From the NCBI GenBank assembly GCA_951406725.2, contig OX597820.1, positions 90,830,001-90,894,000 on the forward strand: DNA of 64,000 bases. Direction: 5' to 3'. The translations under genes were made by a program, and so were the position numbers. Origin of the DNA: Octopus vulgaris (lineage: Eukaryota). Positions 30,620-42,422 of this stretch are shown here, one piece after another. Under the pieces are notes generated by a model. The model was not told the origin of the DNA, did no database searches, and saw only the letters and a program-made list of their open reading frames with translations. Each line of letters opens with the position of its first letter. Position 1 is the first letter of the stretch.

Positions 30620-31181
30620 ATTATTAGTGAATGGAATAAATGGAGTTGAACGAAGATTGTACATAATACCTTTTATTACATTCTACACATGTTTCGAAGG
30701 CCACAAATTTCCAAATTCTGTTTAAATAAGGGTACCATATTGCGGCTTTCTCTTCAGGAAAAAACAGGAATTCCGTTGATAGGACAAAACAAAACAGAGG
30801 CACAGCAATTCGAACGAAGATGCTCCTTAGGAGCCCATGGCTGAGCTGCTTATCAATGTACGTTGAAATCGTGCCTCTGTTTTGTTTCCTGAAGAGAAAG
30901 CCGCAATATGGTACCCTTATTTAAACAGAATTTGGAAATTTGTGGCCTTCGAAACATGTGTAGAATGTAATAAAAGGTATTCTGTACAATCTTCGTTCAA
31001 CTCCATTTATTCCATTCACTAATAATATTAAACTTCAATTATCCGCTCCAACGCACGGTTGCAACACCAAATGGTCTTATCTCCAACCGTGCTGTTTTCC
31101 ACTGTGATTTTTGCTACCCAGGTATCGGTTAAACCTTTGAATATTCTGTTACGAGAAAATTCATCTTTCTATTTCAACAAA
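30620..31181 (+). mobile_element. Non-autonomous PLE-like fold-back element, family P1 copy 1
   Basis: Inverted arms 30621-30761 / 30885-31025 (one mismatch by eye), about 155 bp unique tail, (TA)n on both sides. Confidence 0.85.
30886..30965 (+). ncRNA. Minimal type-I hammerhead ribozyme (mirror copy on the - strand at about 30681-30760)
   Basis: TTC-CTGAAGA-GAAAGCCGC...GTGGCCTTC-GAA-ACA-TG-TGT-A-GAA; AATAAA at 30969. Confidence 0.7.
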
Positions 31182-31267
31182 TATATATATATATATATAT
31201 ATATATATATATATATATATATATATGTGTGTGTGTGTGTGTGTGTGTGTGTGTGTGTATGTATGTA

Positions 31268-31470
31268 TACGAGGGGTGCTCAAAAGTTCCTAGATTTACG
31301 GGTGTCACGAAAGGCCTCGTTAGAGGTCCAACATTCGGAGTTCTTTTACAGGGCTTAGACAAACTACAATGTGTGTGAATCTGAGAGGATGATATGTTGA
31401 ATAAAATCATAATTGATACTGCTCTATCTTCTTTTATCAAAAGACAGGAACTTTTCAGCACGCCCTCGTA
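31268..31470. mobile_element. Mariner-derived MITE
   Basis: TA-CGAGGGGTGCTCAAAAGTTCCT ... AGGAACTTTTCAGCACGCCCTCG-TA terminal inverted repeats with TA TSD. Confidence 0.9.
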
Positions 31471-32329
31471 TTTGCGTGCGTTTGTGTGTGTATGTGTGTA
31501 TGTGTGTGTGTGTGTGTGTTTGTGTGTGTATTTGTGTATGTGTGTGTGTGTTTGTTGAATTCTACCACTGTAAGCAATTTTTGTCAACAAATAACATATA
31601 TCTAAGTCGTGTGAGATTTTGTGATTATTTACATGAGCGCGTGTGCGTATGTGTGTTTGTATATGGCTATGTTCTTTGCTAGGACAATACCAATCGACAC
31701 TTTAGTCAGTGAGTAATTAATTATGACTCACTACATTAATTACTTCAGCTGTCACTTAACAGATTGGCTTTCATGATGACATCACTGTGGATATTTCGGG
31801 TTGTGAACTGTCCAAATTCGTAGATCATTATACAAAACACTTTGTGGTACTTATTCCGTCTCTTTATATCGTGGATATTTCCATTGTGGTTCTTTGTCAC
31901 GAATTCAACTTTTATCTATCTTCTTTACTGGTTTCATATAATAAAATACCAACAAAGTATAGGGCGAGAGGGTGGTATAATTTACTAAGCACTTCCACCA
32001 TACTTGAGTTCTTATCCCTATTTTACAAATCATTTTGATTCGCCGTGCTGACCGATACACATTCACGAAAGCCATCTTATGTTTGGTATCTCAGTTATCT
32101 TCTGTTATTGCTAAGACAATATTTTGGTGTCGAGGTAAAACAAAACCAAAACCTACTCGGATTAATCTGAATATATTTATGTATGGTAATAACTAGTTGA
32201 TGTAGCCGGTAATTCCAGGGAAAGCGGGGTTTATCCCTTGGTTCCTTTCTCTTAATTGTTTTGCTAATCCAATAACAACACTACAAAGTATGTAGCCCTT
32301 AAAACGGTTTTTGTGCATTCAGAGAGAAT

Positions 32330-32476
32330 ACCAGCGCGTAACTGTTATTTATTTCAACTACTTCGAAAGGATTAAAGTCGATCTCTTCGGAATTTGAACT
32401 CAGAACATATAAAGAGACGACATACCGCTAAGCATTCATTTCGCCAGGCTTACTGACGATTCTGCCAGCTCGCCAC
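32330..32476 (-). mobile_element. SINE family A (decayed)
   Basis: gaaaggattaaagtcga..ggaatttgaactcagaac...gattctgccagctcgcc. Confidence 0.75.
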
Positions 32477-39900: not shown

Positions 39901-41458
39901 AGTAAAATGGTTAAAGAAAGAGAAATAAATTACACTAACCAGAAACAAAAATAAACATTCCATGAATGATGACATATAAATCTAGCAGCTAGATATCAGA
40001 ATTCCTGCCGCAATGTTAATACCAAACATACTGGGCCTGACTGCTGTAAAGCAATTGCGAAACACAACATCAGAATGAATATGAAATCGTGAAGGCCTGG
40101 AAATTTACTAATAGGTTTAGGAATTTTATTATTCCAAACAAGCTGCAACTCGTAAGAAAATATGAAGGGAACAAACAAAACGTGACGAAAAGACAGAAGA
40201 CAGTTGTTTTTTTGTTGTTGTTTTTTGTTGGTTTTTTTTTTGGTTTTTCAATACATTTTTTTATACAGGTGTGTTTATGTATTGTTGCTCTTTAAAACAG
40301 TTATTTCGTTCAAATTATGACTGTAGTTCATTTATGATTAATGAATTGACTATTTGTTTAATTAGTCAAAGAGTTACTTCAGCAAATTCTTTCGTCACAC
40401 TACGTCGACCTCGTTACTGAATCACCTTGCCCGCATTTTATCTTAATGCAGGCGAAGGAAGCAGTGAAAGATCACAGAAGCGTTATGAAATACTTTAACA
40501 GAGCAGAGAGTTAATTGGTTGTTTTATTAATTAGTTGGTTAACTGAAAGCAAAGAAAAGGTGAACTACAAACTGGGCGGGTGTTTCTGTTAACATACTTG
40601 CCCAAAAGAAAGAAACAAACAAAAAAATTTTTAACACATGATTTCACATAATTTCGTAAAGCAAACACAACACTATCTTTCTTTCTCCACACAAATGATC
40701 AGAGACACACACTCACAAACACAAACAAATACACACACTAGACACACACTAAAATTCCATTAATCCGGTGTTCGATATTTCAAAAATCTGATTGTCCGAC
40801 ACATTTTACACTTCACCAACTTCTTCCTAAGTGCCCTCATTGTCCATTAGATTGCATCAACAGAAGTACGTGACAGATACTATATTTCATTCACTCCAGC
40901 CCGACAAAAAGTAAAACTGACCTTGGTAGTTTTTTGCAAAATAATGGGTCGGAACTAAATCCTTTACTGCTACAGACGCAGAGAGAGAAACTTAGAGAAA
41001 GAAGGATAAACGATCACCTCTCTCAACTGCTATTTATTCTATCAACCCACACAAAGTCTATTTCAACTGAACTAGAATAAGAACCGAATATTAGAACATG
41101 TTCCATCCGATGCTTTCAAAACGTTACCAAGCATTTCAAAAATGTAAAATGCATAATAAATTATTTGAGAAAGCTACTAATAATTACTTTAAGACACACA
41201 AGTAAAGGATTTCACAACATAACAACAAATGTGATGACTTATTTACTGGTATATTTATTAAGAAAGATGATTTCATATATATAACGATTACCAAATATAT
41301 ATAGTTATTTAAATACTAACTCAAACACAAGGGACTCATTCATGTTCTCTCATTTCAACTCAATGAACTTTTTTCTACGTCTCTGTGTCTTTTCTTGTCA
41401 CTTCCCACAAGCACACACACGCAGGTACATGTGTGTGTGTGAGTATGTGTCTATATAA

Positions 41459-41862
41459 GGCGTAGGAGAGGCTGTGTGGTAAGCAGTTTGCTTGCCAGCT
41501 ACATGGTTCCGGGTTCAGTTGCACTGCGTAACACTTAGGCATGCTTCTTCAACTATAGCCTCGGGCCGACCAAAGCCTTATGAAGGGCTTTGGTAGACGA
41601 AAACTGAAAGAAGCCCGTCGTATATATATATATGTATATATATATGTGTGTGTGTGTGTCTGTGTTTGTCCGTGTTTGCCCCCCAACATCGCTTGACAAC
41701 CGATGGGGGCGTGTTTACGTACCCGTAACTTTGCGGTTCGGCAAGAGAGACCGATGAAATAAGTACTAGGGTTACAAAGAATAAGTTCTGGGGTCGAGTT
41801 GCTCGACTAAAGGCTGTGCTCCAGCATGGCTGCAGTCAAATGACTGAAACAATTAAAAGAGT
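41459..41862 (+). mobile_element. SINE family B, full length
   Basis: Collinear with 43079-43533. Confidence 0.92.
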
Positions 41863-41916
41863 ATATCTACATATATTGTAGCTATATATATATATATATA
41901 TATATATATATATATA

Positions 41917-42422
41917 TTTTGTGAAATAGAAAGATGAATAATCTTGTTGCAGATTAATCAAAAGTTTAACCGATACCTTGGTAGCAAAAATCACAGCAGA
42001 AGACAGCACGGTTGGAGGTACAACCATATGGTGTTGCAACCATGCGTTGGTGCGGATAATTGAATTTTAATATTATTAGTGAATTGAAGAAATGGAGTTG
42101 AACGAAGATTGAACAGAAATCGTTTTATTGCATTCTACACGTGTTTCGAAAGCCACAATTTACCAAATTCCGATTGAATAAGGAGACCATATTGTGTCTT
42201 TCTCTTCAGGAAGAAATAGGAAATCCGTTGGCAAAAACAAAAACAGAACAGAGGCGGAGCAAAACAAATCGAACGAGGCTCCTAAAGAGAAAGACACAAT
42301 ATGGTCTCCTTATTCAATCGGAATTTGGTAAATTGTGGCTTTCGAAACACGTGTAGAATGCAATAAAACGATTTCTGTTCAATCTTCGTTCAACTCCATT
42401 TCTTCAATTCACTAATAATATT
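41917..42422 (-). mobile_element. PLE-like fold-back element, family P1 copy 3
   Basis: Tail 41917-42068 (reverse complement of the P1 tail); arms 42069-42206 / 42285-42422 appear identical; TA flanks. Confidence 0.88.
42133..42212 (-). ncRNA. Minimal type-I hammerhead ribozyme, intact core
   Basis: TTC-CTGAAGA-GAAAGACACAAT...ATTGTGGCTTTC-GAA-ACACGTGT-A-GAA. Stem II 11/12 paired, palindromic stem III, GUA cleavage triplet, AATAAA just downstream. Confidence 0.78.

Follow-up and report, generated by a model that had tools for sequence, protein, structure and literature searches.

The 64-kb window analysed here (Octopus vulgaris, contig OX597820.1, positions 90,830,001 to 90,894,000) is AT-rich animal DNA, dense in microsatellites, and contains exactly three homologous copies of a repeat family, P1, with pairwise identities of 78–87% over 290–370 nt in a self-BLAST of the window. 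The three copies (c1, c2 and c3) share one layout, in which a (TA)n tract is followed by an inverted arm, a forward end, a tail of 150–155 nt and a second (TA)n tract. (TA)n adjoins all six P1 ends; for an interval placed at random in the window, the chance of a (TA)≥5 run lying within 3 nt at each end is ~1e-4. The inversion point, TTCAC(T/C)AATAAT, is identical in the three copies, the tail lies outside the inversion in each of them, and AATAAA is located directly 3' of the predicted cut site of a hammerhead ribozyme. An earlier note on this DNA had described the three copies, the (TA)n on both sides, the ~150-bp tail never included in the inversion and the AATAAA, all of which are borne out here. 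Its proposal that P1 targets (TA)n agrees with the six ends and with a loose (TA)n end at 34013 in sequencing reads.

Copy c1 consists of an inverted arm of ~250 nt (30620–30870, minus strand), which is longer than the forward copy and carries a full hammerhead fold at 30757–30684; a forward end (30871–31026, plus strand), which meets the arm at a 5-nt microhomology, GTGCC, and has a hammerhead at 30889–30962, AATAAA at 30969 and a ~28-nt deletion just 5' of the hammerhead core; and a 155-nt tail (31027–31181, plus strand) followed by (TA)n. Copy c2 begins with a 79-nt inverted arm (33220–33298, minus strand; 100% identity to 33936–34014) and a junction formed by a short re-copied piece of arm (33299–33306), after which family sequence restarts at 33307, with loose ends before this position in read sets X2 and X4. 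It continues on the plus strand with a remnant of the reverse transcriptase (RT) thumb and linker start of a Hydra-type Penelope-like element (PLE; 33309–33404), a non-coding body (33405–33890) that is likely the 3' untranslated region (UTR) past an internal deletion breakpoint near 33405–33414, a broken hammerhead (33891–33946) and the tail (34015–34161), followed by (TA)n. Copy c3 lies in the opposite orientation and comprises a tail preceded by (TA)n (41917–42067, minus strand), a forward end (42068–42285, minus strand) whose type I hammerhead fold is intact (42209–42136), with a palindromic stem III (ACACGTGT) and a GUA cut site, and an inverted arm (42280–42423, plus strand) whose start lies within the hammerhead core, at an imperfect microhomology.

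Within a copy the inverted arm and the forward copy are nearly identical (140/141 positions in c1, 79/79 in c2 and 143/144 in c3), while between copies the arms agree at only 63–71 of 76 positions (83–93%). The arms are unequal in length (79 nt in c2, 144 nt in c3 and ~250 nt in c1), and their inner junctions differ. This combination implies that the inversion was likely made anew at each insertion. The c1 arm reaches ~30866 and is homologous in this part to c2 33790–34010; it includes sequence that is missing from the c1 forward copy and therefore was not copied from it. The 'variable spacer' of the earlier note must be reinterpreted as the element's own upstream sequence, because in c1 it is the arm continuing to 30866 and in c2 it is the body of a high-copy element, as seen in reads. 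The copies are dispersed in the window and arranged head to head, and none of the three is partially tandem with direct pseudo-long terminal repeats (pseudo-LTRs); tandem pseudo-LTRs are optional in published PLE structures.

The sequences support a putative type I hammerhead near the P1 3' end in c1 and c3 only. A type I descriptor matched three times in the window, always in P1 (the forward end and the inverted arm of c1 and the forward end of c3); shuffled windows (n = 100) averaged 0.12 matches, and 3/2000 and 6/2000 element shuffles gave any match. In the predicted structure, stem I is bulged, stem II has 12 basal bp within a 55-nt span, stem III is self-complementary, its self-duplex in c3 amounting to -10.3 kcal/mol, and the site is GUA. 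Across the three rows, 26–28 of 28 pairs are kept per row (92.9% of cells), and four one-sided changes preserve pairing. The hammerhead proposed previously is supported for c1 and c3; it is not, as had been thought, minimal, because stem II spans 55 nt, and in c2 it is broken by deletion of the stem II 3' strand and G12, so that the motif reads TAAAC. These deletions are specific to this copy, being absent from most relatives of c2 in reads, and the motif is intact in read loose ends at 33925 and 33936. A hammerhead-like spot on the minus strand at 33322–33367 (CTGATGA, a small hairpin and AAG), inside the RT remnant, fails the descriptor and was taken as chance. A whole-window Rfam search was dominated by microsatellite-microRNA noise in the 150 of 297 rows listed.

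The earlier note found no recognisable open reading frame (ORF) and regarded P1 as non-coding, but a 33-residue remnant of the thumb of a Penelope RT is encoded at 33309–33404, and the latter description is wrong as to origin. The thumb motif was first suggested by a read loose end before 33307. The frame 33309–33464 matches a single protein among 1.84 billion (phmmer, E 2.2e-6): XP_029650703.1 (P0001) of Octopus sinensis, named 'myb-like protein I' in RefSeq and UniProt. Identity between c2 33306–33404 and this protein is 25/33 residues (tblastn E 3e-11 within the window; family sequence from 33307). The RT sequence of P1 in the window is confined to the thumb. XP_029650703.1 has no Pfam match and appears to be a mis-annotated PLE RT fragment with asparagine-rich stretches. 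Its sole other relative found, one of 307 candidates besides itself, is P0002 (38% identity over 98 residues and 30% over 66), in which RT C-terminal motifs are accompanied by a GIY-YIG domain above the Pfam cutoff; the P0002 endonuclease has Atlas neighbours in Cnidaria and Echinodermata. Both proteins share motifs, by eye, with the Hydra alignment that accompanies PMC8557442, P0002 having the linker motif CxCX7C in place of the CxCX5C of the Hydra clade, which is further marked by RWK and DKT motifs and by the lack of CCHH. The N-terminal RT region is absent from the window, from XP_029650703.1 and from P0002. It is the RT remnant in c2 that ties P1 to Hydra-type PLEs; the PLE identity proposed previously is supported, as are the inverted pseudo-LTR and the tail. 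A Pfam search of seven window peptides returned nothing relevant, and a word-indexed search with a 52-residue window peptide confirmed none of 27 candidates (a weak negative). Relatives of XP_029650703.1 and P0002 were neither confirmed in viral contigs nor found in phages, and P1 pattern scans of metagenome, prokaryote-genome and viral sequence gave no matches. Elsewhere in the window, 10859–10423 on the minus strand holds a decayed coding remnant (linker and endonuclease start) of a Hydra-type PLE of a family other than P1; two of its frames match P0002 (within-window E 4e-4 and 7e-4).

The space in c2 between 33404 and the hammerhead is ~485 nt, compared with ~715 nt for the linker and endonuclease of P0002. 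The three frames of c2 contain 8, 10 and 11 stops over 33309–33890, and the thumb frame stops at 33465 or, with the common read insertions among the indels listed, would stop at 33483 or 33536. No GIY-YIG remnant was detected in c2 33405–33885, as 95/150 and 16/150 shuffles scored as high, and endonuclease motifs spotted by eye in the body were not significant. P1 is accordingly regarded as a derivative and not as an intact member of the Hydra clade, because no endonuclease remnant was detected. The longest open stretch of c2 (97 residues) is within chance (15% of shuffles). An ATG frame in the tail of c1 and c3 (36–37 codons) was rejected as coding, with 2 synonymous against 14 non-synonymous codon differences, and in the consensus fold of the tail a double change occurs in only 1 of 41 pairs.

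All or part of the c2 stretch is present in 20 of the 24 public runs listed. Four runs (X1, X2, X4 and X10, the last only presumed to be RNA) were aligned to 33300–34160 at 80% likeness, the wastewater run X20 (share 0.16) lying outside this set; 6154, 2356, 1536 and 518 contigs matched, respectively, and all 30 bins were covered in each, with the proviso that contig depth, summed or not, does not equal copy number. The read details given here come from the contig pieces listed (32 out of 10,635) and the loose ends listed (24 out of 326). P1 family sequence extends 5' of 33307 in reads, and four X4 contigs end in loose (TA)n at 34013, the inversion point, among the loose ends listed. Contig X4#26 covers 33339–33413 without differences at a depth of 2453, X10#10 covers 33338–33408 without differences, and depth across 33387–33444 shows no dip in X1 or X2. 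The arm had a higher read depth than the inner tail; this difference was suggestive but noisy, the last tail bins being high again, and was not used as evidence.

These observations are probably best explained if P1 represents 5'-truncated insertions of a high-copy octopus PLE with a Hydra-type RT, the c2 form being a likely internally deleted master that lacks an endonuclease and is mobilised in trans by an intact relative. Amplification of this endonuclease-less derivative in trans is itself somewhat favoured, since thousands of contigs, from public runs whose labels name three organisms, cover all of c2, including the junction between thumb and non-coding sequence. The earlier proposal of a non-autonomous PLE therefore likely holds for the c2 form, judged by its sequence, because no endonuclease is detected, stops occur in all three frames and the junction is amplified in reads. 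This judgement covers the c2 form only, c1 and c3 being too short to assign to a master.

Several points weigh against this interpretation. The placement with Hydra-type elements is tentative, coming from motifs compared by eye rather than from a tree. An intact partner was not found: none of 884 longer candidates was related to XP_029650703.1, which is a weak negative. No contig among the 32 of 10,635 pieces listed spans 33414 with 31 nt on each side, so the linkage of the thumb to the 3' body in other copies is only inferred. Positions 33492–33640 of c2 weakly match the post-thumb block of XP_029650703.1 (4/150 shuffles as high; a marginal, post hoc result), and because of this match it is possible that the c2 body is not a UTR but an ORF that has decayed. 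As to the hammerhead, double-sided compensatory changes affect 0 of 28 pairs (three rows, only two of them independent), unconstrained folds are no stabler than shuffles (z 0.6, 0.27 and -0.46), stem I failed to form in the core-constrained fold, and an Rfam search of c1 and c3 gave no hammerhead.

One alternative is that an autonomous Hydra-type element with a 3' UTR of ~480 nt gave rise to P1 by ordinary 5' truncation of its copies, the c2 junction being a rare deletion and no non-autonomous family existing. Such an element would fit the other 5' continuations seen in reads, namely another upstream sequence attached at 33414 in both X4 and X10, and four listed contigs, with 9–12 differences each, that depart from c2 at 33393; it would also fit the shortness of c1 and c3, which prevents their assignment, and the strong 5' truncation that is usual for PLEs (PMC8557442). 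The lack of a depth dip across 33387–33444 in X1 and X2 and the deep exact contigs that run beyond 33404 speak against it, and we consider it unlikely. It is highly improbable that P1 is a non-LTR retrozyme, that is, a tandem hammerhead repeat replicating via circular RNA: the type I hammerhead with its palindromic stem III would suit a retrozyme, and descent of retrozymes from PLE pseudo-LTRs has been argued (bioRxiv 10.64898/2026.07.22.740005), but the copies in the window are dispersed head to head and not in head-to-tail tandem, and the family reaches into RT coding sequence. An origin as a miniature inverted-repeat transposable element (MITE) or as a foldback DNA transposon, bounded by terminal inverted repeats and inserted at TA, is suggested by the near-perfect arms and TA flanks but largely refuted by the RT-thumb remnant and by the arms, which vary in length (79, 144 and ~250 nt) and in their inner junctions. 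It is further opposed by the hammerhead core and by the one-sided tail; the fixed symmetrical terminal repeats without a tail expected of such elements were not seen in the three copies.

For a truncated PLE insertion of the kind favoured here, the P1 architecture could arise as follows. The RT-GIY-YIG protein of an intact relative would bind the RNA 3' end and nick both strands of a (TA)n tract. Each nick would prime one cDNA, one starting from the tail end and the other from an internal site ~150 nt upstream, which is the inversion point. Both cDNAs would end early at unrelated points and be joined head to head through microhomology; these early stops and the head-to-head joining would yield the unequal arms and the one-sided tail. 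The hammerhead would process the precursor RNA, probably cut as a dimer via the palindromic stem III, and would not be required for insertion. The proposal of two head-to-head cDNAs per insertion is drawn from an anole PLE, for which cleavage of AT-rich DNA on both strands and initiation of reverse transcription at two internal sites that delimit the tail were shown in vitro, and whose insertion does not depend on hammerhead cleavage (PMC11167929). A fold-back or self-priming origin (PMC3846280) suits c2 and c3 but suits c1 poorly, and simple fold-back copying is argued against because the inverted arm of c1 is longer than its forward copy. Quite improbable is a more elaborate version of the scheme, a split two-partner PLE in which P1, a Hydra-type master without an endonuclease, has been massively amplified, keeps a working upstream RT and borrows only the GIY-YIG nuclease in trans; two RT starts separated by 150 nt on an RNA dimer, which the long-stem hammerhead would hold together, would then make the arms a record of two independent cDNAs per insertion.

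The layout of P1 is a known one for PLE insertions: an inverted copy, a tail, a hammerhead and a preference for (TA)n have all been described for PLEs and the Hydra clade (PMC8557442), and P1 appears to be a new family of a known kind. PLEs make up 6.83% of the O. vulgaris genome, in 190 families (PMC13282606), and octopus Hydra and Naiad families are catalogued in PMC8557442. Members of the Hydra clade described there, including Hydra-1_Obim of Octopus bimaculoides and Penelope-13_HM, resemble P1 in (TA)n insertion, in RT thumb motifs and in a type I hammerhead, located near the 3' end, that has a CTGAAGAG core and a short self-complementary stem III, and Penelope-13_HM has an inverted 5'-truncated copy attached, like the 5' inverted copy of P1. 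P1 differs from the Hydra rows of File S2 of that paper in the 55-nt span of stem II, which is much longer, and in the lack of an endonuclease region in c2. A long stem II region (~53 nt) has a precedent in the hammerhead of PLE-X1_sMoe in the same file; unlike P1, this is an unrelated plant element that targets 28S rDNA. The family is set apart by motif and by-eye comparison: ten short P1 motifs had no match in the available supplement of PMC8557442, where line breaks may hide some, P1 motifs had none in that of PMC13282606, and the printed ends of Hydra-1_Obim did not match P1 by eye. Canonical PLE units (Adineta Pen2a, PMC3846280; anole PAc, PMC11167929) share with P1 an inverted arm that excludes the one-sided tail, microhomology junctions and tail ends readable as two RT start sites. 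Their tails, however, measure 30–40 nt, compared with ~150 nt in P1, and published PLE tails overlap the ORF start, whereas that of P1 shows no sign of coding constraint. Non-autonomous Chlamys PLEs such as MRC1 and non-LTR retrozymes are, like P1, non-coding derivatives of PLEs in which the 3' end is retained, but they often form head-to-tail multimers, while P1 is head-to-head and keeps a scrap of RT.

The window contains further repeats. Three other fold-back elements (32710–33180, 42440–42660 and 47345–47650) each bear a tail on one side only, which ends near TTTACCCT, ahead of (TA)n. The first lies immediately before c2 and the second immediately after c3. The hammerhead descriptor had no match in any of the three. 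Those at 42440–42660 and 47345–47650 have a short tail match in common (score 28; shuffle maximum 25), and those at 32710–33180 and 47345–47650 show by eye a covarying TTC(G/A)GTATG / CATAC(C/T)GAA pair; the three are possibly ends of other PLE families. Older imperfect palindromes lie at 25046–25213 and 42764–42927 (arm identity 72% and 80%), the former having CTGAAGAG at its centre without a matching second half-core. A multi-copy repeat of ~400 nt with an internal microsatellite occurs at 16184–16581, 21205–22120, 29853–30252, 41458–41863, 43080–43523 and 60366–60950, and we presume that it resembles the abundant octopus short interspersed nuclear elements. Additional features are an element with inverted ends of ~195 nt at 69% identity (51088–51852), two tandem 254-nt copies at 89% identity (17256–17763) and a frame that is Tc1/mariner-like by eye, with no Pfam match (21384–21746).

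The value of these results lies chiefly in annotation: P1 is a high-copy octopus family that resembles a MITE, is missed by Rfam and has an RT relative named 'myb-like protein I' in RefSeq. If true, the deleted master would add to the Hydra clade a non-autonomous derivative, none having been found described in the PLE literature searched. The long tail and unequal arms of P1 form a natural data set to test the two-start-site model of PLE insertion, since a 150-nt tail resolves the two starts easily.

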